Shown one piece after another: positions 11,158-33,584 of a DNA stretch of 64,000 nt (within the stretch, counting starts at the first letter, position 1; every line of letters starts with the position of its first letter). The stretch is from NCBI GenBank assembly GCA_963675665.1, contig OY776510.1:3744001-3808000 (forward strand), written 5' to 3'. Below the pieces are notes generated by a model. That model was not told where the DNA came from, searched no databases, and saw only the letters and a program-made list of their open reading frames with translations. The stretch is from Spirochaetia bacterium (GTDB lineage Bacteria > Spirochaetota > Spirochaetia > UBA9216). The position numbers were made by a program, and so were the translations under genes.

Positions 11158-11253
11158 CTCCTATTTTTTCCGCCATGGATGGCGGTATGTATTTGAGTAA
11201 GTTTGCTTAAGCAAACTTCAGATTTAAAAATTACATGGAAGTAATTTTTAAAT
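11158..11253 (-). repeat. Three-hairpin intergenic element (diverged relative of 20695-20802)
   Basis: Minus strand: ATTTAAAAATTAC-TTCCAT-GTAATTTTTAAAT, then AAGTTTGCTTAAGCAAACTT, then CCGCCAT-CC-ATGGCGG, then ATAGGAG (xylA SD). Same order, loops and spacing as 20695-20802. Confidence 0.75.
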
Positions 11254-12741
11254 AAACTTTGGTTTTAGCAGTTCAAGATACTGCTTGTACTCGTCATATA
11301 CTTGTTCGTATTCCTTAACCGAGGATGGATCAGGAAAAACGGTTTCTTCCTCTCTCAGCCTTATATGCTTATCCGTAATGTCCGACAGTTCCGAATGACT
11401 CTCCTCGGAATTCTTCAAAGCCCATAATGCCTGAAGCGCGGCGCCCAGCGCGGCAGCCTCTTCTTCAACAAGGGTAACAACCTTTGCGTTTAATGCATCC
11501 GCCGTGATTTTCCGCCACAGCGCGCTTTTTGCTCCGCCGCCGATAAGTCGAACCTCATTTGTTTTCACTCCAAGAGCTGCAAGCGACTCAAATCCAAGCT
11601 TCAAACCGAAAACAGCAGACTCCATTGAAGCGCGCATGATATTGGCTTCGGTCACATTATTCATGTTCATACCGGCAATTACGGCACGTCCGTTCGGAAG
11701 GCTGGGAGTCCTCTCGCCGCTGAAATACGGAAGCATAATTATTCCGCCTGCGCCGGGACCCGCAGATTCGGCTTTGGCATTGAGTTCGTCAAGCGGCATC
11801 TCAAACAGCGCCCGCATCTGCTCGGTCGCCACGGTACAGTTCATTGTACAAAGAAGCGGCAGCCAGCCGCCTGTGGATGAACAGAAAGCCGCAAGGTTTC
11901 CTTCCGGATCAATCAACGGATTGTCTCCGTATACATAGATTGTGCCTGATGTTCCGAGGCTCATCGTCAAAACGCCTTCCTGAACAGCACCTGTTCCCAC
12001 CGCACCCATCATGTTATCGCCGCCGCCGGTTGAAACGGGGATGCCTTCAGGTATCCCGAAATACGACGCTGCTTTTTGCGTAACGAAACCTGCCAGATCA
12101 TCAGCGTCCTTCAGTTCAGGAAGGCATGACAGCAAATCCCTGTCGGGATCAATTGCCCTTAGCACGTCTTTTGACCAGCAACGTTTTCGAACATCCAGAA
12201 AAGCCGTTCCCGAGGCATCGCCGTATTCAGCCGTATATTCGCCGGTCAGAATAAAGTTCATATAGTCATGCGGAAGCATGATATGAGCAAGCCTGGCATA
12301 AAGTTCAGGTTTGTTCTTTTTAAGCCAGAGCACTTTCGGCGCCGTGTATCCCGGCAGTACTTTGTTACCGGCTTTCTCAATAAGTTCAGCCTCGCCGCCG
12401 AACCGTTCCGTTATTTCCCTGCATTCCGCCGCCGTTGAAACATCATTCCACAGCTTGGCATTGTAAAGAGGTTTTCCGTCGGAGTCCGCCGGCACAAAAC
12501 CATGCTGCTGCCCGGAAACCCCGACAGCCCTTATCGTCTTTCTGATGCCTGGTTCAATTGAATCCGAACATATCTTTGCGGCTTCTATCCACCATTCAGC
12601 TTTCTGCTCGCTTGTTCCGTCAGCTTTTGTAATGATATCAAGCTTCTGCTGGGCCGTAGCTACTGTTTTCTTCGATTCGTAATCATAAACAAGGAACTTG
12701 ATGCTTTGAGTTCCCATATCGATTCCAAGAACCGTATTCAT
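11248..12741 (-). CDS. xylB: Xylulokinase (FGGY family)
   Basis: LGIDMGT, SGQQHG, GGGDN, SLGTSG, PYFSGERTP and GGGAKS motifs; adjacent to xylA. Start set at MNTVLG, after a GGGGG SD. Confidence 0.92.
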   Translation of the reverse strand: MNTVLGIDMGTQSIKFLVYDYESKKTVATAQQKLDIITKADGTSEQKAEWWIEAAKICSDSIEPGIRKTIRAVGVSGQQHGFVPADSDGKPLYNAKLWNDVSTAAECREITERFGGEAELIEKAGNKVLPGYTAPKVLWLKKNKPELYARLAHIMLPHDYMNFILTGEYTAEYGDASGTAFLDVRKRCWSKDVLRAIDPDRDLLSCLPELKDADDLAGFVTQKAASYFGIPEGIPVSTGGGDNMMGAVGTGAVQEGVLTMSLGTSGTIYVYGDNPLIDPEGNLAAFCSSTGGWLPLLCTMNCTVATEQMRALFEMPLDELNAKAESAGPGAGGIIMLPYFSGERTPSLPNGRAVIAGMNMNNVTEANIMRASMESAVFGLKLGFESLAALGVKTNEVRLIGGGAKSALWRKITADALNAKVVTLVEEEAAALGAALQALWALKNSEESHSELSDITDKHIRLREEETVFPDPSSVKEYEQVYDEYKQYLELLKPKFI

Positions 12742-17903: not shown

Positions 17904-20717
17904 TTGAAGATTAAAAGTTTAATTTATTTGATAACAGGTATTTTTATATTTACCATACTCACCTCCTGCCCTTCTCCGCTTGAACCTGAAAAGCTTGCTT
18001 TGCTTAAGGATCTTGAAGCACCCAGGATTGTCATTACATCTCCGGCCGACTACAGCGAATACGCCACAGTTATCGAGCTTGAAGGCTATATTGAAGATAC
18101 ATCTCTTGCAAACCTGCCGGCCGACAGCGGGCTATCCGTTTCATACAGCATTCCCGGAACAAGCATCAACGGGACTGTTGATGTTAGTCTTCCCGACGGT
18201 TCTTTTTCGGGAATCATTAATGTGGCCGCGCTCAGCGGAGAAAAGGTGATTGAATTCAGCACTACTGATATAAACGGAAATTCAGCTTCTGCGTCTGTAA
18301 ATATTCTCAAACCTGAAGGTGGAGATATCTCCGGATTCACAGTCACGCCCGGCAACAGACAGGTAACAATATGCTGGGCCCCTGTTTCCGGCGCAGAGTC
18401 ATATTCGATATTTGAGTCGTCATACGGAGAGACTATAGAACCCGGAGAGATAACCGGAACAAGCTATACCTGGACCGGTCTTGAAAACGGCGAGATATAC
18501 AGCTTTCAGCTTACCGCGCACCTGCCCGTCGGAATCGGTGAAGATGCGTATTCCTCGACGGCTACAACAATGCCGCTTTCTCCCTTTAACCTCACTCCGG
18601 TGATAAAGAATACCGAACATAAAGCAATAACCATTGAATGGCCTGCTAATGATAATATCGACCGGTTCATCGTTGAACGCAGCGGCAGCCATCTCGGTCC
18701 ATGGGAAATAAAAAGGGTACTGACTCAAAATGTATTTACCGACGAAAAAGTTGAATACGATACTAACTACTATTACAGGATTACTCCTTCCGGCTTTACA
18801 GAGATAAACAGCCTCTGCGCCGGGAGCAGCCCCACCAGGTTCTCAGGTGACGATATCATCGCTACTTTGCCGTTGCCGGGCTCAATCACGCCCTTCTCGC
18901 TGCAAATCGATGATAACTATGCCTATATTGCAAACTTCAGAGACGGTTTAGCGATTGCTGATATATCGGACCCATACAATCCGATTATTGTTTCAAGTTA
19001 CGGCGTGGCTTCCACAGTGGAGATACGGGACATTTTCGTGAGAGACCGTATTGCATATCTTGCCGGTTATGACGACGGCCTTCTTCTTGTCGACATATCC
19101 GATATTGACAACCCCGTACTTCTATCCTCATGCAGCACACCCGGCAACGCGTTGGGAGTATATGTTTCCGGCGATTATGCGTATATAGCCGATGATTCTG
19201 AAAGAATATCTATCGTCGACATCTCAACCCCGGCTTCGGTAACAGACAGCTCATTGATATCCGGCTGCAGCACCGACGGGATTGCGGACAAAGTCCTTGT
19301 AAAGAACGGTTACGCCTATGTGGCTGCCGACGGGCTGGAGGTAATTGATGTATCCAATCCTCCGCTTGTAAATGATCTTTCAACAAAGGGAAGCTGGAGC
19401 AGCCTGGACGGAAAAATAAGCAAGGATATATACATCTCCGGTGAATATCTGTATATAGTGCTTCAACCCCCGCCTCCCGGCATTCCCCCGGGTCCGAGTT
19501 CCCTGCATATAATCGATATTTCAGTCCCTGCGAATGTAACGAACTCATCCGGTGTCGGCAGCTGTGAAATCTTAGGAAACGCGGAAGGCGTTACAGTATC
19601 CGGAAATCTCGCATACGTAGCATCATATGACGCCGATTTGCAGGTAATCGATGTATTTAATCCGGCAGCGCCGGTATTGGAAAGGACATACGCCACCTCC
19701 GGCGACCCGTTTGATGTAAAGGTTTCCGGTTATTACGCATATATCGCAGATCGCTACGGCAGCGGCCTCGTTGTATTGGATCTTGCAAAGCCCGGATCAC
19801 CTTCAATTGTTTCCGCTTCTGCGGACATGTACCGGACAAGCGATATAGAAATATTCGACGAATATGCCTATATTGCCGACGGCACTGACGGGTTAAAGAT
19901 TATGGATATATCCGAACCGGAAGAGATCTCACCGGCCTCCAATATTATTGAGTTTTCTCTCCCCGGCGAATGTCTTGAAATTAATATCCGCTATCCCTAT
20001 GCTTTTATAGCGGCACAGGGCTCAGGGCTTGTTGTCGTAAATATTGCTGATCCGCTTCATCCGTCCCTGCTTAGCAGCACTGAAACAACCCAGAATGCTA
20101 AGGATTTATATGTGCTGGGAAATTATGCATATGTTACGGACAGCGGATGCAGTCTTGAAATAATCGACATCACATTTCCGGAAACTCCTTCCATAGTTTC
20201 CACATGCGACACCGACGGGACTGTAAGCGGCATCACCGTATCCGGTGATTACGCATATATTTGCGCCGGAGGAAGCGGGCTTCAAATCATAGATATCTCC
20301 GATCCGCTCAGTCCGTATATTGCCGCATCCTGTACAAGCGCGGGAGGGGCGAGAAAAGCTGAAATCATCGGCAATTACGCCGTTGTCTCTTCAAATAGCG
20401 CAGGATTATATATTATTGATATTTCCGACCCGTCCGGAGTTACAAACACATCTATTGTAGCCAGCCATCCCGTAACAGGTCACGGATACAGCCTTGCAAT
20501 TGCCGGCGATTTTGTCTATGTCGGCGGAGACGAACGTTTCACGGTTGTGGATATAACCGACCCCGAATCTCCCTCAACCTTTTCCGGCTGCGCGCTGCCG
20601 ACACTCGGTATCGGCTACGGAATTGCCGTCGCAGACTCATACGCCTACATTGCAGACATTAATAGCGGACTTCAGATAATAAACCTCTTAGGAGGAATGA
20701 TAAAAAGTCCTCCATGA
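17904..20717 (+). CDS. Surface lipoprotein with Ig/Fn3 domains and LVIVD repeats (beta-propeller)
   Basis: TTG start; lipobox ILTSC; Fn3-like segments; many YAYIAD..GL.IIDISDP repeats. The last residues (GMIKSPP) come from the inserted element. Confidence 0.85.
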   Translation: MKIKSLIYLITGIFIFTILTSCPSPLEPEKLALLKDLEAPRIVITSPADYSEYATVIELEGYIEDTSLANLPADSGLSVSYSIPGTSINGTVDVSLPDGSFSGIINVAALSGEKVIEFSTTDINGNSASASVNILKPEGGDISGFTVTPGNRQVTICWAPVSGAESYSIFESSYGETIEPGEITGTSYTWTGLENGEIYSFQLTAHLPVGIGEDAYSSTATTMPLSPFNLTPVIKNTEHKAITIEWPANDNIDRFIVERSGSHLGPWEIKRVLTQNVFTDEKVEYDTNYYYRITPSGFTEINSLCAGSSPTRFSGDDIIATLPLPGSITPFSLQIDDNYAYIANFRDGLAIADISDPYNPIIVSSYGVASTVEIRDIFVRDRIAYLAGYDDGLLLVDISDIDNPVLLSSCSTPGNALGVYVSGDYAYIADDSERISIVDISTPASVTDSSLISGCSTDGIADKVLVKNGYAYVAADGLEVIDVSNPPLVNDLSTKGSWSSLDGKISKDIYISGEYLYIVLQPPPPGIPPGPSSLHIIDISVPANVTNSSGVGSCEILGNAEGVTVSGNLAYVASYDADLQVIDVFNPAAPVLERTYATSGDPFDVKVSGYYAYIADRYGSGLVVLDLAKPGSPSIVSASADMYRTSDIEIFDEYAYIADGTDGLKIMDISEPEEISPASNIIEFSLPGECLEINIRYPYAFIAAQGSGLVVVNIADPLHPSLLSSTETTQNAKDLYVLGNYAYVTDSGCSLEIIDITFPETPSIVSTCDTDGTVSGITVSGDYAYICAGGSGLQIIDISDPLSPYIAASCTSAGGARKAEIIGNYAVVSSNSAGLYIIDISDPSGVTNTSIVASHPVTGHGYSLAIAGDFVYVGGDERFTVVDITDPESPSTFSGCALPTLGIGYGIAVADSYAYIADINSGLQIINLLGGMIKSPP

Positions 20718-20802
20718 CTTTTTATCATTTTGAAGTTTACAAACTTTGTTTGAAAACTTCACTATTCATTACCTGCATCCATGCAGGAATTTCTTATAGG
20801 AG
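20695..20802 (+). mobile_element. 108-bp non-autonomous three-hairpin element sharing ends with the IS110
   Basis: First 15 nt are identical to the IS left end (GAATGATAAAAAGTC); ends in TTATAGGAG like the IS right end; flanked by TAGGAG. Hairpins at 20696-20729, 20731-20761 and 20772-20787. Confidence 0.75.
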
Positions 20803-20827
20803 GAATGATAAAAAGTCTTCATGAGCT

Positions 20828-20980
20828 GGTGAATTGATATACTGCCTTAACTTTAATTGAGGCAGTAAGGTTACTGTTCGACATTTTTACTGGTCCGCGA
20901 GACCGTTTAGGAGATTGAAGAGCCGTAACCGAAACATTCAATGGTCTGCGAGACCGGATAGGAGAATGGAACAATTCACC
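20828..20980 (+). ncRNA. Putative bridge RNA of IS110 copy 1
   Basis: Closing stem GGTGAATTG/CAATTCACC; 5' hairpin TACTGCCT..AGGCAGTA; two similar modules (GGTC-yGCGA-GACC..TAGGAG) whose flanks match the target and donor sequences. Confidence 0.75.
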
Positions 20981-21015
20981 GTATAGGCACTGCTTCAAAC
21001 TATTGGAGATAGAAC

Positions 21016-22128
21016 ATGAAGATGAGTATTGGCGTGGATCTTCACAAAACGCAGTTTACAGTATGCCTTTTAAGTGAAGACCGAAAAATTGATCAATTGG
21101 GAATGTATCCGACCAGCGGAAATGGTTATGGAGCATTTCTGAAAATGCTGGATGAATATTGTGAAGAGGAATATGAGTTGAGAGCAGCGGTGGAAACAAC
21201 CGGGAATGCCCGTTATTTCCGCAATAAACTGTTAAAGGCTGGAGTCGAAGTGGTTGTAGTGAATACTTTGAAATTCAAGGTAGTGAATGAATCTGTAAAA
21301 AAGACAGACAAACATGATGCACGCACCCTGGCGGAGTTTCTTGAGAAAGACATGCTGCCTGAATCGATATTATGTTCCCAAGAGAGTGAGGATATTCGAA
21401 GGGTGCTGAAATCCAGGTCGATACTGGTAAAATCTGTTGTGTCGTTAAAGAACCAGGTGCATGGCTTATTACTTGGTTATGGAATAGAGACCAAACGCGG
21501 ACAGCTGCAGAGTAAAAAAGAAAGGCAGCGAATCCTGAACGGTCTCGAGGACCACGACTTTTACGGAAGCGCTGCCAAAACGGTAATACCGTTACTGGAT
21601 ATGATAGATAATCAGGCATCGCAAGTCAAGCAGCTTGAAAAGGTTTTGGCTGAGCTTGTGGAGGACGATGAAGATGTTGAGCTTCTGCAGACAATACCAG
21701 GCGTGGGTCTAATAACAGCAGCAACAGTAAGAGCCTATACAGACGATATCGGCAGATATGATAGTGCGAAGAAATATGCAGCAAACGCCGGGCTTGTGCC
21801 ATGGGTGCAGAACTCAAATATGACAATACATCATGGACATATAACAAAGCGTGGGCCTGTAGAACTGAGGACAGCCTTCGTACAGATGGTGATGGGAATG
21901 GTTCGTATGCAAAAGAAGACCGGGACGTACCGAATAATGACGAAGTATGCAGCGATGAAGAAGCAGAAAGGCTCGGGTAAGAGTGTAATAGCTGCCGCCC
22001 GCAAGATGAGCACTTTGGTATATACAATTTTAAAAACCAGAGAGCCGTTTGATCCGATGAAAATGGCTTTTAGAAAAGAATACAGGGAAATGCAGGCAGC
22101 AGCATGGGAAGCTGTAATGGTCGGTTGA
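21016..22128 (+). CDS. IS110-family DEDD recombinase/transposase
   Basis: GVDLHK, VETTG and KTDKHDA (DEDD) motifs; LQTIPGVG and AGLVP..QNS in the C-terminal Transposase_20 region. Confidence 0.95.
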   Translation: MKMSIGVDLHKTQFTVCLLSEDRKIDQLGMYPTSGNGYGAFLKMLDEYCEEEYELRAAVETTGNARYFRNKLLKAGVEVVVVNTLKFKVVNESVKKTDKHDARTLAEFLEKDMLPESILCSQESEDIRRVLKSRSILVKSVVSLKNQVHGLLLGYGIETKRGQLQSKKERQRILNGLEDHDFYGSAAKTVIPLLDMIDNQASQVKQLEKVLAELVEDDEDVELLQTIPGVGLITAATVRAYTDDIGRYDSAKKYAANAGLVPWVQNSNMTIHHGHITKRGPVELRTAFVQMVMGMVRMQKKTGTYRIMTKYAAMKKQKGSGKSVIAAARKMSTLVYTILKTREPFDPMKMAFRKEYREMQAAAWEAVMVG

Positions 22129-22191
22129 TATCCGACTAGATCATAAGCTTATATTTTTAGCTTGTGGTTGACTTTTTATAGGAGAATAAAT

Positions 22192-24381
22192 ATGAAAAAA
22201 GGATTTCAAACAATAAAAACAATACTTTTTGCGGGACTCATCCTGCTACTGACTACCCTGCTTCCCCTCACTGCATTCTCCCAAAGCGGGGAAGTCGATT
22301 TAAACGAATATTACGCCTACCCGGTTTCCGCCGGGGCTTATTATCATCAGCTTTCGGGGCTGGGCAACAAAGCCCTTGCCGACTTCAGCATAAATGAGAT
22401 TTCCAGCGAAGCGCGCGTGCCGATTCCCGGTATTCCCGTACTGCAGCCGCTTGTCAGGGCCGGATACCTTAGCTACGGTTTTACCGGCAGCGTTGAAGAA
22501 CTGCACCAGGACTGGACACATTTTCATGTCTTCGGCGGGCCGGGCGTTGCCTACTGTTCCCGTATATCACGCGAATTCGAAATCGGCGCTGATCTTTTCG
22601 GGGCGCTGACACAGTCATATTTTACGGAACTGGTTTTCAACGGCGTCCAGGAAACACAGGGGCAATTGAATATACTGGCAGGACTGTCGGGGCGTCTTGC
22701 CTTGAATCCGTCCTATAATTTTTCCATATCGGTTAACCCGGCGCTGAATTACCTGTACGGGCTCGGCCCGCTGCATGATTACGACGGATTTACGTTCGGG
22801 GTCGGCTTTTCGGGTACATACCGCTTCGGACAGGACCCCGACGCGGCGCAGTCTTCAATAAAGGCGATACGTTTCGACGATGTTGATCTGCCTCCGCTGT
22901 TTGCCGCGATGCAGAGTTACTATGTAAAAAACCCGGCGGGAACGCTGACAATTTCCAACAAGGAAAAATACACGCTTGAAGGCGTCTCCCTGTCATTTAT
23001 GCAGCCGGGATTCATGGATTCGCCGAGCCCTATGGCGTCGGATATTGTTCTTGAGCCGGGCGAGAGTATAGAGGTCCCCATCACCCTGACTTTTAATAAC
23101 GAGGTTTTTTCAACCCAGGGGGTCACCCCGCTTACAGGCGAAATAATCGCAGGTTATACCGTACGCGGGCGCGAGGTTGAGCAGAGACAGTCGGTTACCT
23201 ACGATCTGCATGATCGCAACGCCCTTACGTGGGACGACGACCGGAAGGCCGCCGCATTTATTACAGCCCAGGACAGCGCCGTCCGCAACTATTCAAGCTA
23301 TATCCGCCAGATTCACCGCGACGCGGTCAGACCTTATATCAGCAGCAACCTTCAGTTTGCCATGCAGGTATTCAACGCCCTCGGCGAACTGGGCATTCTG
23401 TACCAGATTGATCCGACCGCTCCGTTTACCGAGGTCCAGGGCGACACCTTCGTCGTCGACTCAATCAGCCTGCCCCGCGAAACGCTAAAACGGCTGACCG
23501 GCGACTGCGACGATCTTACAGTACTTTTCTGCACAATGCTTGAATCAATCGGCATCGAATCCGCGCTGGTTACCGTTCCGGGACATATCTTCTGCGCTTT
23601 CAACACCGATGTTGAGTCTTCGGACTACATGATGATAAACCCCGACCGCAACCAGATAATCGAAGTTGACGGCAACATCTGGATACCGGTTGAAATTACA
23701 ATGATAGGAAAACACAGCTTTACGGAAGCCTGGAACAAGGGATACTCGGAATTCGCGGAATGGGACGCCGAACCCGACCGCAGGGGTTTTTATAAAACCG
23801 GCGATGCACAGGGCATATTCCGGCCTGTAGTCCTGCGCGAAACCGATCTTGGGCTTCAGTACGGAGACGATGAGGCGGTTGTTTCGGCATTTGAAAAGGA
23901 CCTTGATTCCCTGTCGCAGTCAATCTTAAAACCTGCCAAAGCCGACGCTGAGGCAAAAGGCACCCCGAAAGCCTGGAATTCCTACGGGGTAGCCGCGGCA
24001 AAACTCGGCGCGTACGGCACTGCGGAAACCGCCTTTGACAAGGCCGTAAAATCAAAACCCGATTACACAAGCGCCAAGCTGAACCTCGGCTCACTGTATT
24101 ACATAATGGAAAAATATTCAGATGCGTTTAAAGTTTACCAGAATATCGAACAGAATGCCGCAAACCTGAATATTTCCGACCGTACCATGTTCAATCTTTA
24201 CCTTAACATGAGCAAAACAAGCTATGCTCTTGAGAAAAATGACGAGGCTGATTCCTATTTCCGCAAAGCCACTCAGCTTGACGCTGATAAAGCCGCCGAT
24301 TTCGCCTACCTCGGCACAGGCGGTACAGGTGTCGCAAGAGCTGCCGAGGCTGCTGACAGTAAGATATCGTTTTTTGAATAG
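22192..24381 (+). CDS. Exported protein with beta-rich N-terminus, Ig-like region, transglutaminase-like domain and TPRs
   Basis: Signal peptide from MKKGFQ (ATG 22192, after the IS-supplied SD); GDCDD...VPGHIF Cys/His motif; C-terminal TPR helices. Confidence 0.75.
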   Translation: MKKGFQTIKTILFAGLILLLTTLLPLTAFSQSGEVDLNEYYAYPVSAGAYYHQLSGLGNKALADFSINEISSEARVPIPGIPVLQPLVRAGYLSYGFTGSVEELHQDWTHFHVFGGPGVAYCSRISREFEIGADLFGALTQSYFTELVFNGVQETQGQLNILAGLSGRLALNPSYNFSISVNPALNYLYGLGPLHDYDGFTFGVGFSGTYRFGQDPDAAQSSIKAIRFDDVDLPPLFAAMQSYYVKNPAGTLTISNKEKYTLEGVSLSFMQPGFMDSPSPMASDIVLEPGESIEVPITLTFNNEVFSTQGVTPLTGEIIAGYTVRGREVEQRQSVTYDLHDRNALTWDDDRKAAAFITAQDSAVRNYSSYIRQIHRDAVRPYISSNLQFAMQVFNALGELGILYQIDPTAPFTEVQGDTFVVDSISLPRETLKRLTGDCDDLTVLFCTMLESIGIESALVTVPGHIFCAFNTDVESSDYMMINPDRNQIIEVDGNIWIPVEITMIGKHSFTEAWNKGYSEFAEWDAEPDRRGFYKTGDAQGIFRPVVLRETDLGLQYGDDEAVVSAFEKDLDSLSQSILKPAKADAEAKGTPKAWNSYGVAAAKLGAYGTAETAFDKAVKSKPDYTSAKLNLGSLYYIMEKYSDAFKVYQNIEQNAANLNISDRTMFNLYLNMSKTSYALEKNDEADSYFRKATQLDADKAADFAYLGTGGTGVARAAEAADSKISFFE

Positions 24382-29852: not shown

Positions 29853-29914
29853 CTTAATCTCCTATAAAAAGTCAACCACAAGCTAAAAATATAAGCTTAT
29901 GATCTGGTCGGATA

Positions 29915-31027
29915 TCAACCGACCATTACAGCTTCCCATGCTGCTGCCTGCATTTCCCTGTATTCTTTTCTAAAAGCCATTTTCATCGGATCAAACGGCT
30001 CTCTGGTTTTTAAAATTGTATATACCAAAGTGCTCATCTTGCGGGCGGCAGCTATTACACTCTTACCCGAGCCTTTCTGCTTCTTCATCGCTGCATACTT
30101 CGTCATTATTCGGTACGTCCCGGTCTTCTTTTGCATACGAACCATTCCCATCACCATCTGTACGAAGGCTGTCCTCAGTTCTACAGGCCCACGCTTTGTT
30201 ATATGTCCATGATGTATTGTCATATTTGAGTTCTGCACCCATGGCACAAGCCCGGCGTTTGCTGCATATTTCTTCGCACTATCATATCTGCCGATATCGT
30301 CTGTATAGGCTCTTACTGTTGCTGCTGTTATTAGACCCACGCCTGGTATTGTCTGCAGAAGCTCAACATCTTCATCGTCCTCCACAAGCTCAGCCAAAAC
30401 CTTTTCAAGCTGCTTGACTTGCGATGCCTGATTATCTATCATATCCAGTAACGGTATTACCGTTTTGGCAGCGCTTCCGTAAAAGTCGTGGTCCTCGAGA
30501 CCGTTCAGGATTCGCTGCCTTTCTTTTTTACTCTGCAGCTGTCCGCGTTTGGTCTCTATTCCATAACCAAGTAATAAGCCATGCACCTGGTTCTTTAACG
30601 ACACAACAGATTTTACCAGTATCGACCTGGATTTCAGCACCCTTCGAATATCCTCACTCTCTTGGGAACATAATATCGATTCAGGCAGCATGTCTTTCTC
30701 AAGAAACTCCGCCAGGGTGCGTGCATCATGTTTGTCTGTCTTTTTTACAGATTCATTCACTACCTTGAATTTCAAAGTATTCACTACAACCACTTCGACT
30801 CCAGCCTTTAACAGTTTATTGCGGAAATAACGGGCATTCCCGGTTGTTTCCACCGCTGCTCTCAACTCATATTCCTCTTCACAATATTCATCCAGCATTT
30901 TCAGAAATGCTCCATAACCATTTCCGCTGGTCGGATACATTCCCAATTGATCAATTTTTCGGTCTTCACTTAAAAGGCATACTGTAAACTGCGTTTTGTG
31001 AAGATCCACGCCAATACTCATCTTCAT
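29915..31027 (-). CDS. IS110-family DEDD recombinase/transposase
   Basis: Translation identical to 21016-22128. Confidence 0.95.
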   Translation of the reverse strand: MKMSIGVDLHKTQFTVCLLSEDRKIDQLGMYPTSGNGYGAFLKMLDEYCEEEYELRAAVETTGNARYFRNKLLKAGVEVVVVNTLKFKVVNESVKKTDKHDARTLAEFLEKDMLPESILCSQESEDIRRVLKSRSILVKSVVSLKNQVHGLLLGYGIETKRGQLQSKKERQRILNGLEDHDFYGSAAKTVIPLLDMIDNQASQVKQLEKVLAELVEDDEDVELLQTIPGVGLITAATVRAYTDDIGRYDSAKKYAANAGLVPWVQNSNMTIHHGHITKRGPVELRTAFVQMVMGMVRMQKKTGTYRIMTKYAAMKKQKGSGKSVIAAARKMSTLVYTILKTREPFDPMKMAFRKEYREMQAAAWEAVMVG

Positions 31028-31062
31028 GTTCTATCTCCAATAGTTTGAAGCAGTGCCTATAC

Positions 31063-31215
31063 GGTGAATTGTTCCATTCTCCTATCCGGTCTCGCAGACC
31101 ATTGAATGTTTCGGTTACGGCTCTTCAATCTCCTAAACGGTCTCGCGGACCAGTAAAAATGTCGAACAGTAACCTTACTGCCTCAATTAAAGTTAAGGCA
31201 GTATATCAATTCACC
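31063..31215 (-). ncRNA. Putative bridge RNA of IS110 copy 2
   Basis: Reverse complement of 20828-20980. Confidence 0.75.
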
Positions 31216-33584
31216 AGCTCATGAAGACTTTTTATCATTCCTCCTATAAAATACAGGCGCGAACCGAAGTCTCCTACAAGCCTCGTTTTTTCGGTGTAGC
31301 CCGTTCCGGTGAATTGATGGTAAGGTCTTATTCCAGCGAACATCAGTTCGTCGCCGAAAGCTTCAAATTCCTCTACCTCGTTTTCCAACATATAGTTATT
31401 GCTGATAACAGTGTGAAGAATACCGTCGGCCTTCAGCTTTATCGGGCTGATATGATTTACCAGATTACCGAATGCACGGATATTCACATACTGTCTTCTT
31501 GTTATAACTTTATACATCATATCCGGTTCAAGGCCAACAGTTTTAAGCTGCTCAAAACCTCCGTTTGGTTTCTGCAGAATCTGGTAATAACCGAGAACGG
31601 CATTTTTTTTATCTTTGCTTACAGTAATCCATAACGGCTGGTTATCTGAAAACGGAGATTTTAACCGGTAAAAATCTCCGTACTGAAAGAGGCTGCGCCG
31701 GCTTTTATAGTCGGTTATCTGCTGTTTTATTGTTTTCTTTTCAAAATTGGAAAGTTTCGTCAGATCCAGTTCATAGCCCAGAAGACCGAAAGCTGCAACA
31801 TTGAATCTTGTCTCAAGAGGCGTATTACGCAGTACCTGATGCGAAGGCGCGGCGCTTACGTGCGCCCCCATTACCGACGGCGGGTATACCATTGAAGTAC
31901 CGTACTGAATACTGATTCTTTCAACCGCGTCGGTATTGTCGCTTGTCCAGGTCTGGGGCATATAGTACAGCATTCCGAGATCAAAGCGGTTTCCGCCGCT
32001 CGCGCATGATTCAAAAAGGATATCGGGAAACTCATTTTTAAGCTTGTCCAGAAGCCGGTAGAGCCCAAGAACATACCTGTGCGCCTGCTCTTTCTGACGT
32101 TCCGCCGGCAGGATGTTTGAATAGAGGTCCGAAAGGTTCCGGTTGCAGTCCCATTTCACATACTGCAGACCTGCCCTCCTGAAAAGATTTGACAGAACTT
32201 CATACATATAATCAATTACATCCGGGTTTGCGTAATCAAGCATCAGCTGGAAACGCCCTTCCGAAGCGGGTCGTTCCGGTGTTTTTATAGCCCAGTCGGG
32301 ATGCGCCCGGTACAGTTCGCTGTCGGCATTGACCATCTCTGGTTCAACCCAGAGGCCGAATTTCAAACCTTTAGCATGAAGTTTTCTGCCAAGTCTTTCC
32401 AGACCACCTGGAAGCTTCTTCCTGTTTTCATACCAGTCGCCGAGGCTTGAATGATCATCATCACGCTTTCCGAACCAGCCGTCATCAAGAACAAACAGCT
32501 CGATACCGAGTTTTACTGCTTCATCGGCAAGCTTGAGCAGTTTACTTTCGTTAAAATCGAAATATGTCGCTTCCCAGTTATTTATAAGGACAGGCCTGTC
32601 CTTATACTGCCAGGCCGGGTTTACAATATTATTATTAATCAGCTCGTGAAAATTCCTGCTCATCCCGTTTAATCCTGAATCTGAATAAGTCAGAATCGCT
32701 TCGGGTGTTTGAAATGATTCACCGGGGACGAGTTGCCAGCTGAAATCGAAAGGATTAATCCCCATCTGGATCCTTGTAAACGAATGAGGATTTACTTCAG
32801 CAAGACCGATATGATTACCTGAATAAACAAGCGAAAAACCGTAGCATTCACCTGCATTCTCGGTGGTATCGGCTCTCTTTAAACAAAAAAACGGGTTATG
32901 ATTAGCGCTGCTCACGCCTTTTTTTGAATCTATATAGAAAATACCCTCTGAAAGTTTCCGGGTATTTATATGGCGTTCGCTTATCCATTTCCCGTCAAGG
33001 GTAAGCAGCTCAAAACCGGATTCACTGAAATCAAGATTAAAACTCATCAGCTTCTCTATGGACACCGGGAGATTCCCGCTGTTTACAAGCTTCGAACTTC
33101 GTGTAATAACATTACGCTCATAATACACGGTATAGCTGAGCACCAGAATCAGGTTGGCGTATGTGTCTTCAAGAGTTATTTCCAGCGTCTCAACATTATC
33201 GTTGTTTCTGAACGCATGCGGCATATCCTGAAGCTTGTTTTCGCCTTCATAGATTCTGTGGCTTTTATAAATGAAATCACAAACCCTGGTTCCGTTGCTG
33301 AAATTGATTTCCGTAAACGGTTCGCGGTAATCACCCTTGCCGTACGCCGGGGCTTCCAGGCAGGCGGCATCAAGACTGAAGTGTCCTGTTTCCGTACTGT
33401 AGCATGTTGAACTGCCCGTCCACAGGCTGAACGACTGGTGCATATTATTGTATGAACTTTTTTCCCGTATTCTTTTTCCGAAATACAGATTAACAGGATG
33501 GCCCGAGTCAAGGATTCTTATGATATAACTTGTATTCTCTGTAGAAAGATGGAAATCTGATTTGTTATTCCTGATTTTTATCAT
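31206..33584 (-). CDS. Alpha-galactosidase (GH36)
   Basis: INNWEATYFDF, LFVLDDGWFG, FGLWVEPEM, YVKWDCN, ESCASGG and WTSDNTD motifs. The last residues (GMIKSLHELVN) come from the IS left end. Confidence 0.93.
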   Translation of the reverse strand: MIKIRNNKSDFHLSTENTSYIIRILDSGHPVNLYFGKRIREKSSYNNMHQSFSLWTGSSTCYSTETGHFSLDAACLEAPAYGKGDYREPFTEINFSNGTRVCDFIYKSHRIYEGENKLQDMPHAFRNNDNVETLEITLEDTYANLILVLSYTVYYERNVITRSSKLVNSGNLPVSIEKLMSFNLDFSESGFELLTLDGKWISERHINTRKLSEGIFYIDSKKGVSSANHNPFFCLKRADTTENAGECYGFSLVYSGNHIGLAEVNPHSFTRIQMGINPFDFSWQLVPGESFQTPEAILTYSDSGLNGMSRNFHELINNNIVNPAWQYKDRPVLINNWEATYFDFNESKLLKLADEAVKLGIELFVLDDGWFGKRDDDHSSLGDWYENRKKLPGGLERLGRKLHAKGLKFGLWVEPEMVNADSELYRAHPDWAIKTPERPASEGRFQLMLDYANPDVIDYMYEVLSNLFRRAGLQYVKWDCNRNLSDLYSNILPAERQKEQAHRYVLGLYRLLDKLKNEFPDILFESCASGGNRFDLGMLYYMPQTWTSDNTDAVERISIQYGTSMVYPPSVMGAHVSAAPSHQVLRNTPLETRFNVAAFGLLGYELDLTKLSNFEKKTIKQQITDYKSRRSLFQYGDFYRLKSPFSDNQPLWITVSKDKKNAVLGYYQILQKPNGGFEQLKTVGLEPDMMYKVITRRQYVNIRAFGNLVNHISPIKLKADGILHTVISNNYMLENEVEEFEAFGDELMFAGIRPYHQFTGTGYTEKTRLVGDFGSRLYFIGGMIKSLHELVN

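Follow-up and report, generated by a model that had tools for sequence, protein, structure and literature searches.

All positions below refer to the window, the 64,000-nucleotide stretch of DNA that we analyzed; the genome that bears it, with the elements described here, is labeled G000. On the + strand, an open reading frame of 937 amino acids (17904..20717) encodes an LVIVD-repeat protein (PF08309, E 2.9e-92), and the next gene (22192..24381) encodes a TPR-repeat protein of 729 amino acids. Between the two, also on the + strand, lie the motif TAGGAG (20689..20694), a non-autonomous element of 108 bp (20695..20802), called here the mini, and an insertion sequence (IS) of the IS110 family, 1383 bp long (20803..22185), that ends 6 nucleotides ahead of the ATG of the TPR gene. 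The motif TAGGAG is the original Shine-Dalgarno sequence (SD) and the left half of the insertion target. The LVIVD frame intrudes 23 nucleotides into the mini, where its present stop codon lies; without mini and IS, it would end GGA GAA TAA, overlapping the SD. On the - strand, the window holds another copy of the same IS (29858..31240), likewise between an SD and an ATG, and another member of the mini family (11166..11257), which matches the Rfam motif TD-2 with 51.1 bits, above the gathering score.

The mini consists of a left end GAATGATAAAAAGTC, three hairpins, all given here on the + strand, and a right end TTATAGGAG; its predicted fold has an energy of -39.7 kcal/mol (z -6.3). Its left 15 nucleotides (20695-20709) are identical to those of the IS (20803-20817), and its right 9 (20794-20802) to the last 9 of the IS (22177-22185). 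The right end of the mini is a re-created SD, a site now occupied by the IS. Hairpin 1 (20695..20730) is made of the left end and its own inverted copy around the loop CTCCAT: the arms, 20696-20709 and 20716-20729, are 14 nucleotides long and 100% complementary, and hold ATAAAAAGTC and GACTTTTTAT, the two sides of the 10-nucleotide subterminal inverted repeat of the IS (20808-20817 and 22170-22179). In hairpin 2 (20731..20761), the letters of the stem differ among copies of the family, with pairing retained. Hairpin 3 (20772..20787) reads CCTGCAT CC ATGCAGG, is followed by AATTTCTTAT, and is terminator-like.

The mini has no open reading frame of its own of 50 amino acids or more. Removing 20695-20802 in silico restores TAGGAG, leaving CTCTTAGGAG joined to GAATGAT; removing both mini and IS leaves CTCTTAGGAG joined to AATAAATATG, that is, an SD separated by 7 nucleotides from the start codon ATG of the TPR gene. 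The shared ends, the lack of a gene, the presence of both subterminal repeats inside the first hairpin and the clean excision had all been reported in an earlier note on this DNA, and they stand. The same note claimed that a circle of the mini would form the junction encoded by the donor loop of the IS: such a junction would indeed equal that of the IS over 24 nucleotides, but the loop in question, GGATAGGAGAATGG, reads ATAGGAG then AATG, and so lacks one G relative to the literal ATAGGAG-GAATG.

Like a MITE-like derivative, the mini thus carries both termini of an autonomous IS without the recombinase gene. A classical MITE of a DDE transposon, with terminal inverted repeats and a target-site duplication of fixed length, is rejected: the left end of the mini, GAATGAT, is not the inverted copy of its right end, TATAGGAG, and the flank shares (A)GGAG only. 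When the flanking TAGGAG is included, the mini is bounded by a direct repeat of 24 nucleotides (20689-20712 and 20797-20820), 96% identical and spaced by 108 nucleotides.

In the neighboring IS, the recombinase gene (21016..22128, + strand) encodes 370 amino acids and contains the domains DEDD_Tnp_IS110 (PF01548, E 9e-18, 64.9 bits for a cut-off of 29) and Transposase_20 (PF02371, E 1e-17, 64.3 bits for a cut-off of 21.3). The IS has no long terminal inverted repeats, and its flank and right end share AGGAG only. The non-coding region at its left end (20803..21015, + strand) folds with a predicted energy of -64.2 kcal/mol (z -4.45) and is a putative bridge RNA, with two modules of 39 nucleotides. 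The first (20879..20917), in which an inner hairpin separates the 5' side CATTTTTAC from the 3' side TTTAGGAG, matches the target and may be read as the target-binding loop; the second (20930..20968), with 5' side CATTC and 3' side ATAGGAG, matches the donor junction and may be read as the donor-binding loop, CATTC being the match to the GAATG side. The right end of the IS, TGGTTGACTTTTTATAGGAG (22165..22185, + strand), provides the SD of the downstream gene.

The genome holds 15 copies of this IS, 99.9-100% identical. All 15 lie after (T/A)AGGAG, 5 to 7 nucleotides before an ATG (exactly 6 in 12 of them), and all are co-oriented with the gene. This orientation differs from that of IS900 of Mycobacterium avium subsp. 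paratuberculosis, whose recombinase gene runs antisense to the gene at its target site.

By sequence comparison, the IS belongs to a lineage of the IS110 family that is present in several phyla: relatives with 53-79% amino acid identity are found in metagenome-assembled genomes of spirochaetes, Syntrophales, Desulfobacterales and Gracilibacteria, and all have the left end GAATGATAAAA. The right end TTGACTTTTTATAGGAG and the position between SD and ATG are the same in the three lineages checked, namely G000, Oceanispirochaeta and Syntrophales. Across 13 lineages, the 5' sides of the loops read CAT followed by six variable positions (N6) in the first and CATTC in the second, and the 3' side of the second loop is invariant, (A/G)ATAGGAG. 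The nucleotide that precedes AGGAG varies, with four different bases, and in 13/13 lineages the 3' side of the first loop agrees with the target flank at this position. As part of the overall explanation given below, it is rather probable that the bridge RNA of this lineage reads a target made of an SD, about 6 nucleotides and ATG, and a donor junction ATAGGAG-GAATG. The 13 lineages provide as many natural guide-target pairs for a bridge RNA that would read an SD plus a start codon.

The earlier note had suggested a genome-wide search for copies, and the mini proves not to be single. An nhmmer census of G000 yields 90 three-hairpin copies, 71 of them near full length, with the mini itself scoring 85 bits against the family profile. 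At its left terminus the family has AGGAG followed by GAATGATAAAA, and at its right terminus TTTTATAGGAG; both perfect ends, GAATGAT and ATAGGAG, are found in only 15 copies. Nearly all minis lie between an SD and a start codon: 70 of the 90 directly precede the start codon of an open reading frame of at least 60 codons, 9 precede another copy, 5 precede the IS, and 6 neither. Multiple copies are thus found at the target type of the autonomous IS (the 70, plus the 14 that precede a copy or the IS), and some stand in tandem, 2 to 5 in a row. The 15-mer GGAGGAATGATAAAA has 34 occurrences in the genome, nearly all at left ends of minis or IS copies, where base composition predicts 0.02, an excess of about 1700-fold.

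No two dispersed minis exceed 96.6% identity, the best pairs lying at 90-96.6%, and no dispersed identical copies are found in the genome despite its 15 intact IS copies. The mini at 20695-20802 has only partial matches elsewhere, none full-length; the 84 nucleotides between its direct repeats have relatives at many other loci. Recent dispersal goes with intact ends: of the 8 minis dispersed most recently, 6 have perfect ends of the IS type, against 9 of the remaining 82 (Fisher p 2e-4), a comparison in which the 8 are not independent, since they form only three clusters.

Does the similarity between mini and IS extend beyond the termini? In the 13 lineages, the distance from the left end to the first loop is 111-118 nucleotides, in agreement with the size of a mini, and true derivatives of this extent exist elsewhere (L107, L112, L147). 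A covariance model of the IS from the left end through the first loop gives the mini 23.4 bits (E 0.022), against 70-114 bits for real ones, which argues that the two share no homology beyond the termini; a diverged deletion product of this kind is rejected as unsupported. Two other candidate drivers were also rejected. A RAYT (Y1) transposase, of the REP/BIME class, would require a Y1_Tnp domain (PF01797), and there is none in G000, G009, G048 or G075. The second IS110 family of G000 (7 copies) has, as ends and target, a different hairpin repeat. One broken copy of Y1_Tnp was seen in G006.

The mini family is present in all five sister species examined, and in four of them minis have left ends of the IS type. 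The IS itself is a different matter: the only recombinase match in these species at E<=1e-5 is an IS110 of 22% identity in G009, the only IS DNA is a left-end remnant of 98 nucleotides in G008, and 24 pattern matches in G007-G010 contain no IS junction apart from this remnant. In a sister genus, G001 holds at least 6 minis with IS-type left ends and no recombinase match. Co-occurrence with an autonomous partner, expected of MITE-like elements, is thus not seen in these species, the full IS being found only in G000, among draft assemblies that can hide IS copies (contigs of G004 and G152 end inside the IS left end).

Comparison of orthologous sites reveals presence/absence polymorphism with exact boundaries. 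One site is empty in G006, which reads TTTAGGAG followed by gcatgtATG, in G007, which reads TATAGGAG followed by tgtataaATG, and also in G010; the same site is filled in G000 and G009, by different minis, exactly after TTTAGGAG. A second site is filled in G000 and empty in 5/5 relatives. Conversely, 12 mini-bearing genes of the sister species have counterparts in G000 with at least 59% amino acid identity, and none of the 12 G000 sites bears a mini. The earlier note had considered that a single copy with no empty orthologous site would speak against mobility; since the family is multi-copy, with filled and empty sites, this situation does not arise at the level of the family. For the copy at 20695-20802, no empty orthologous site was found among relatives of the downstream gene, the best of which (G006, 68% amino acid identity, and G009, 76%, partial) differ upstream, so that no usable comparison is available there.

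The mini family overlaps the orphan Rfam motif TD-2 (RF03162). The mini matches it on the minus strand with 44.7 bits, below the gathering score of 48.7, and 18 of the 33 TD-2 matches in the genome are at or above this score. The minis share with TD-2 and TD-1 a three-hairpin architecture, conserved loops of the TCCATG type, many copies per genome and restriction to spirochaetes, as these motifs are described in Weinberg 2007 (PMC1950547); they differ in that TD-2 was modeled on the strand opposite to the mini, and in the score of the present copy. Among 2686 Watson-Crick pairs in the stems of the family, 11 G:T and 14 A:C one-by-one mismatches are counted, with no strand bias. This is not the G-U-tolerant, strand-specific covariation of a structured RNA, and the pattern would fit DNA palindromes better than folded RNA. 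An RNA-level function is not supported: in addition to the missing G-U strand bias, a promoter scan yields nothing above shuffled sequences, and the single terminator-like match lies within shuffle expectation. Four complete genomes of another genus (g38) each contain at least 19-25 TD-2 elements, and the IS110-family recombinase domain PF01548 is found in 0/4 of them; in the 12 copies inspected, these elements lack SD-type ends and are not at SD-ATG positions. The core can thus multiply in the absence of this IS.

It is natural to conjecture that the roughly 90 minis are an old, MITE-like family of short, gene-less, three-hairpin riders of the IS110 lineage, and that at the present locus the IS arrived afterwards, in an SD re-created by a mini. 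We lean towards this explanation, with a confidence somewhat above even. The shared ends of minis and IS lineage, together with the target and donor reading of the bridge RNA, suggest that minis are non-autonomous riders of the lineage recombinase; we infer that whichever full copy the genome has would provide recombinase and bridge RNA in trans. The left half of the donor would be an SD that fits the target loop. Since this half is itself an SD, each insertion would re-create both a target and a working SD, making head-to-tail stacking possible. At 20695-20802, a diverged mini would have been resident first, and one of the 15 recently expanded IS copies would then have landed in the SD that it re-created. 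A moving mini might pass through a circle or through a strand-transfer intermediate; at 108 bp, a double-stranded circle is sterically strained.

The opposite order would make the mini an active passenger of this very IS, as the earlier note proposed, inserted after it at the junction of flank and left end. The donor junction, identical over 24 nucleotides, is consistent with this, as is the left flank TTAGGAG, which matches the 3' side of the first loop, TTTAGGAG, at 7/8 positions; moreover, the 5 census minis that directly precede IS copies are joined by a sixth mini-like flank before another. However, the right half of the target would then have been GAATGATAA, which has no ATG at N6 and agrees with the expected A-rich N6 plus ATG at only 3/9 positions (a hand count); the gene side of the IS, where the target is re-created, bears a mini at 0/15 copies; and no two of the minis next to other IS copies are the same, their likeness reaching 90% at most. 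A passenger of this particular IS also accords poorly with 15 nearly identical IS copies set against a mini that has no near-identical copy elsewhere, and with a family present in 5/5 sister species when the IS is found in G000 alone. We regard this order as distinctly improbable: the stacking is more simply explained by an IS landing in an SD re-created by a mini. Given TATAGGAG, IS insertions next to minis number 4/27, against 5/114 (p 0.068), a weak excess. A local duplication of the left junction of the IS, or an assembly artefact, could produce the 24-nucleotide direct repeat at both junctions, but it is scarcely credible when the intervening 84 nucleotides have relatives at many loci and contigs from public sequencing runs, with the depth of a single copy, extend over 20300-20720 and 20710-20799; the runs being probably the source data of the assembly, this depth is not independent support.

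A TD-type structured repeat, either an RNA leader or a DNA palindrome with a host function, could also have spread by means other than IS110, the IS merely preferring its SD and the likeness of the ends reflecting SD context. The TD-2 matches in G000, the TD-2-rich genomes of g38, the persistence of the family in five sister species where the IS is not found, and the terminator-like hairpin 3 with its T-run are all compatible with this account, and TD-1 is described as usually in a 5' regulatory position (Weinberg 2007, PMC1950547). We nevertheless hold it to be unlikely. The left end of the minis matches the lineage-wide IS end for 11-15 nucleotides beyond the SD, and the 15-mer is strongly over-represented; orthologous sites are filled or empty with exact boundaries, one of them occupied by two different minis, and there are tandem arrays; the stems, nearly devoid of G:T pairs, fit DNA palindromes better, and G000, G009, G048 and G075 have no RAYT transposase. 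One scenario would combine a TD-type origin with the rider family that we favor: an IS110 lineage that reads SD, N6 and ATG and re-creates its target would have acquired a resident spirochaete core of the TD type, and cores with IS ends would have been copied from gene to gene as donors of about 100 bp, stacking, replacing ribosome-binding sites and outliving the lost IS. We offer it tentatively, at a little less than an even chance. If true, it would supply this bacterial family's orphan TD-like motifs with a mechanism, and would show bridge recombinases acting in nature, in trans, on minimal donors.

The closest relatives of the mini are the MITEPpu9 elements of Pseudomonas putida KT2440: as described in PMC12288879, they are gene-less, have left and right ends of the IS110 type, occur in tandem with ISPpu9 or alone, and are proposed to be moved in trans by the IS recombinase. 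The kind of element, an IS110 MITE, is thus not new. According to the same source, MITEPpu9 is present in 8 copies, is located on the downstream side of the recombinase gene, contains an sRNA gene, targets REP sequences, and has been observed as minicircles. The present family has about 90 diverged copies at SD-ATG sites, made of three DNA palindromes and lying upstream of the IS; scale, site and target regeneration are what is new here. For IS900, the target given in PMC8141618 is CATGNNNNNNTCTCCTT, the reverse complement of AAGGAGA-N6-CATG, that is, an SD, 6 nucleotides and a start codon: the same type of site, with the same spacing, as at 12/15 sites of the present IS. A mini family is not among the features of IS900 reported in the available text of that paper.

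The architecture of the IS resembles that of IS621, for which PMC11208160 describes a DEDD recombinase and a non-coding RNA at the left end with two loops, the first for the target and the second for the donor junction. According to PMC11208160, each loop of IS621 uses its 5' side to pair with the left part of the bottom strand and its 3' side to pair with the right part of the top strand; when the present IS is read in the direction of its recombinase gene, the two sides are exchanged. The left halves of donor and target also have nearly the same sequence here, unlike in IS621, with the consequence that the target is re-created, an outcome that insertion normally does not have, as stated in the preprint of Hu et al. 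2026 (10.64898/2026.08.14.744561). That preprint describes non-coding repeat units stacked beside IS110 recombinase genes, whose boundaries keep donor half-matches (n = 468). As presented there, those units are local expansions of one locus, whereas minis occupy independent SD sites throughout the genome, and have remained in species in which the IS was not found.

With its bridge RNA provided in trans, IS621 can work with a donor of just 22 bp (PMC11208160). If the riders are indeed moved by a bridge recombinase, G000 would offer a collection of minimal donors, each about 100 bp long, that occurs in nature, and a class of orphan RNA motifs of the TD type, known since 2007, would be linked to a DNA-level mobile element, in this bacterial family at least. 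It would also be a natural case of coinciding left halves of donor and target, in which each new insertion regenerates both the target and a functional ribosome-binding site: this would explain the stacking and make insertion nearly neutral for the downstream gene.

Scans of metagenomes for two exact stretches of the locus, of 30 and 34 nucleotides (left flank; start of the downstream gene), gave 0 matches each. In the public-run data, which consist of contigs from four runs, none spanning the locus, no junction between a right end and a left end was seen. One joint in these data links 20835 to 22165 across 6 other letters (the shorter of its sides has 20 nucleotides, at a likeness setting of 90%). 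This joint is absent from the assembly, in which 15/15 left and right ends of the IS belong to full copies; it may represent an IS with an internal deletion, and its source may be a different organism.

The 108-bp gene-less element at positions 20695 to 20802 of the window, which we call a mini together with its relatives, is a real feature, and the anatomy first proposed for it, with shared ends, subterminal repeats inside the first of its three hairpins and clean removal, was verified throughout. The mini starts with GAATGATAAAAAGTC, the same as the first 15 nucleotides of the adjoining IS110-family element (the IS, 20803 to 22185), and its last 9 nucleotides, TTATAGGAG, are also the final 9 of the IS. 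A 24-nt direct repeat that includes the flanking TAGGAG recurs 108 nt apart at 96% identity. Hairpin 1 has arms of 14 nt, 100% complementary, in which the subterminal inverted repeat of the IS recurs as ATAAAAAGTC and GACTTTTTAT. Deleting the 108 bp in silico joins CTCTTAGGAG to GAATGAT; deleting both mini and IS joins CTCTTAGGAG to AATAAATATG, where a Shine-Dalgarno sequence (SD) stands 7 nt before the ATG of the TPR-protein gene downstream, and the upstream LVIVD-repeat gene then ends in GGA GAA TAA. As the sequence stands, the insertion gives the LVIVD-repeat protein the C-terminus ...NLLGGMIKSPP in place of ...NLLGE (20695 to 20717), with the stop codon of its gene in the loop of hairpin 1.

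The IS is 1383 bp long and codes for a 370-aa protein with the domains DEDD_Tnp_IS110 and Transposase_20. Its left end is a structured stretch of 213 nt (-64.2 kcal/mol, z -4.45), a putative bridge RNA with two modules of 39 nt each, 77% alike. The source genome, G000, holds 15 copies at 99.9-100% identity, all in the orientation of the gene they precede, with (T/A)AGGAG directly before and ATG 5-7 nt after, at exactly 6 nt in 12 of the 15; the SD of the targeted gene is replaced by the element's own end, TTTTTATAGGAG. A second full copy in the window (29858 to 31240, minus strand) lies directly after TATAGGAG, 6 nt before an ATG, with no mini adjoining. In contigs of three public sequencing runs (X1, X2 and X3), the 33 nt that open the IS (to position 20835) and the 21 nt that close it (from 22165) have only 6 other letters lying between them, at a depth close to single copy; the joined piece is absent from the G000 assembly, and its source is a variant with a deleted IS or else a different organism.

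Recombinase relatives, at 53-79% amino acid identity, occur in MAGs labelled Oceanispirochaeta, Syntrophales, Desulfobacterales, Gracilibacteria, Marispirochaeta and Treponema, among others. The left end GAATGATAAAA is directly behind an SD in all IS relatives inspected, and in the three checked a start codon comes 5-8 nt after the right end TTGACTTTTTATAGGAG. Guides and targets were compared in 13 lineages. The 3' side of the first loop, read as target-binding, has the form xxxAGGAG and tracks the target flank: the base preceding AGGAG agrees in 13 of 13 lineages, and all four bases occur there. Its 5' side, CAT plus 6 nt, is complementary to spacer and ATG. In the second loop, read as donor-binding, the 3' side is invariably (A/G)ATAGGAG, the right end, and the 5' side contains CATTC, complementary to the left end GAATG. 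The earlier note had this loop encode an ATAGGAG-GAATG junction, which is a near match: the loop has ATAGGAG-AATG, one G fewer.

The pattern fits the bridge-RNA scheme reported for IS621 (PMC11208160), except that the two sides of each loop appear swapped in role when read along the recombinase gene. In that direction, within 20879 to 20968, each loop has a 5' side that pairs with the top strand to the right of the crossover and a 3' side identical to the top strand to its left, the reverse of the IS621 rule. The recombinase gene has the orientation of the targeted gene. The same type of site, SD-N6-ATG, is described for IS900, with motif CATGNNNNNNTCTCCTT (PMC8141618).

BLAST returns many partial relatives of the 108-bp mini. 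On the minus strand it matches Rfam family TD-2 (RF03162) at 44.7 bits, for a gathering score of 48.7; another mini of the window, in front of a gene (11166 to 11257, minus strand), exceeds that score with 51.1 bits. With 150 of 681 candidates scored, G000 has at least 33 TD-2 matches, at least 18 of them over the cut-off. The genome-wide search for copies suggested earlier, done with an iterated nhmmer profile, gives 90 family members, 71 of them near full length, rather than a single copy. The consensus reads AGGAG, GAATGATAAAA opening the element, hairpins 1, 2 and 3, AAnTTTTTATAGGAG closing it, 5-8 nt, and ATG; the loops are (C/T)TCCATG in hairpin 1 and TCCATGG in hairpin 3. Behind 70 of the 90 minis there is a start codon with an ORF of at least 60 codons; the other 20 stand before another copy (9), before the IS (5) or before neither (6). 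Stem sequences vary among minis while pairing is kept, one-by-one mismatches in the 71 copies being 11 G:T and 14 A:C versus 2686 Watson-Crick pairs. The lack of strand bias and the near absence of wobble suggest that the hairpins are palindromes at the DNA level rather than folded RNA.

Arrays hold 2 to 5 copies. In one (G000:C1:1652330-1652891), five minis of about 112 bp, 95-100% identical, stand head to tail: all internal junctions are alike, TTTCAGGAG meeting GATTTATGATAAAAG, and only the gene-proximal copy has the TTTTTATAGGAG end.

Several observations point to mobility of the family. The 15-mer GGAGGAATGATAAAA occurs 34 times in G000 versus 0.02 expected, and 0, 2, 6, 9 and 7 times in five sister species of the genus (G006-G010); these 24 matches are 21 minis before ORFs, one cut by a contig end, one ordinary gene start and one truncated IS left end. 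Of 17 mini-bearing genes examined in sister species, G000 has counterparts for 12 at 59-94% amino acid identity, none with a mini; for one more the counterpart is only 32% identical, and for four there is none. In front of a 138-aa gene, the site is empty in G006 (...aaccTTTAGGAG followed by gcatgtATG), G007 (...TATAGGAG followed by tgtataaATG) and G010, while G000 and G009 carry different minis, each exactly after TTTAGGAG, and G008 has no match. A second orthologous site is filled in G000 and empty in five of five relatives. The empty sites that the earlier note asked for thus exist at the level of the family. The closest dispersed pairs in G000 are 90-96.6% identical, tandem neighbours 93-100%. 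Perfect IS-type ends are found in 6 of the 8 elements of the closest dispersed pairs versus 9 of the other 82 minis (p 2e-4, the 8 elements falling in only three clusters and thus not being independent); of the remaining two of the 8, one is a mini with perfect ends that another IS has split.

Whether minis are passengers of this IS, as was also proposed, is a different matter, and the proposal is supported only in part: the family shows signs of mobility, sits at SD sites and has IS ends, but the IS was not found in the sister species, identical dispersed minis are absent from G000, and the hairpin core occurs in another genus, g38, without the recombinase. Within the genus, recombinase and IS DNA were found in G000 only, bar a 98-nt left-end remnant in G008 (88% identity) and an unrelated IS110 in G009 (22% identity). 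Draft assemblies may hide IS copies, since contigs of G004 and G152 end within the left end; no such junction is seen in G007-G010. G001, in a sister genus, has at least six SD-adjacent minis (L207-L212) with IS-type ends, the same hairpin 1 and different inner hairpins, undetected by the TD-2 model, and no recombinase match.

In a sample of 151 genomes of the class, TD-2 is confined to this genus, one occurrence in a sister genus, and four g38 genomes. The latter, complete and about 2.8 Mb each, hold at least 19-25 TD-2 matches apiece, with no relative of the recombinase and no PF01548 domain, so the hairpin core is able to exist and multiply without this IS. SD-type ends are absent in the 12 g38 elements inspected for them; a partial extra hairpin 1 often lies behind the g38 copies inspected (L167-L170, L195-L206). 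In G000, no mini stands between IS and gene at any of the 15 IS copies, and both ends are perfect in only 15 of 90 minis.

The IS lineage itself sheds short derivatives through internal AGGAG repeats. In a Treponemataceae MAG, L107 (G014:C2) spans about 113 nt from the left end to the AAGGAG of the first loop, with an SD before and N7-ATG of a 166-aa ORF after, and L112 is a second of this kind; L147 (G008:C379:2186-2285) is a short natural deletion derivative, and L222 (G017:C15) has its two loops fused. The segment from left end to first loop measures 111-118 nt in 13 of 13 lineages, which puts it in the size class of a mini. Against a covariance model built from this segment the 108-bp mini scores only 23.4 bits, so common descent past the termini is unsupported. 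A 108-bp circle would be strained. Copy-out with direct top-strand transfer, reported in a preprint (10.1101/2025.10.25.684509), would spare it; for IS621, a 22-bp donor is reported to be enough in trans (PMC11208160).

Why mini and IS are stacked may follow from the guide. The donor left half, TTTTATAGGAG, nearly equals the target left half (TTTAGGAG in the first loop, TATAGGAG at 9 of 15 occupied sites); consequently, the right junction of any insertion is a target again, with original spacer and ATG. IS110 insertion is reported normally to proceed without target regeneration (Hu et al., preprint 10.64898/2026.08.14.744561). The right end of the mini would thus supply a regenerated target for the IS. 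The IS occupies 4 of 27 TATAGGAG sites inside minis versus 5 of 114 elsewhere (p 0.068; including one mini-like flank lowers it to 0.013). Hairpin 3 resembles the GC-rich hairpin just upstream of the target that reportedly aids another IS110 (preprint 10.64898/2026.03.19.712850). The left junction of a resident element should be a poor target, because it presents GAATGATAA where A-rich N6 and ATG are expected; newcomers should then be gene-proximal, as the IS is here, and we infer that it is the younger insertion.

MITEPpu9, a MITE-like companion that stacks with its own IS110-family element, is already in print and can form minicircles (PMC12288879), and tandem non-coding units beside IS110 have been reported at scale (10.64898/2026.08.14.744561). 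The dispersed family of about 90 copies appears to be new, as do the SD-start-codon site with regeneration of target and SD, the persistence of minis in species in which no IS was detected, and the overlap of the family with the orphan TD-2 motif. In the literature searched, TD motifs are treated in a 2007 paper only (PMC1950547), and IS110, MITE and bridge RNA together in the ISPpu9 paper only; the supplementary tables of these papers may contain further lists of interest.

Another IS110-family element, unrelated to the first, is present in G000 in 7 copies; it codes for a 387-aa recombinase and targets a different hairpin repeat. In a three-layer nest at G000:C1:2621185-2624190, it lies within hairpin 1 of a mini whose right end is occupied by the SD-targeting IS.
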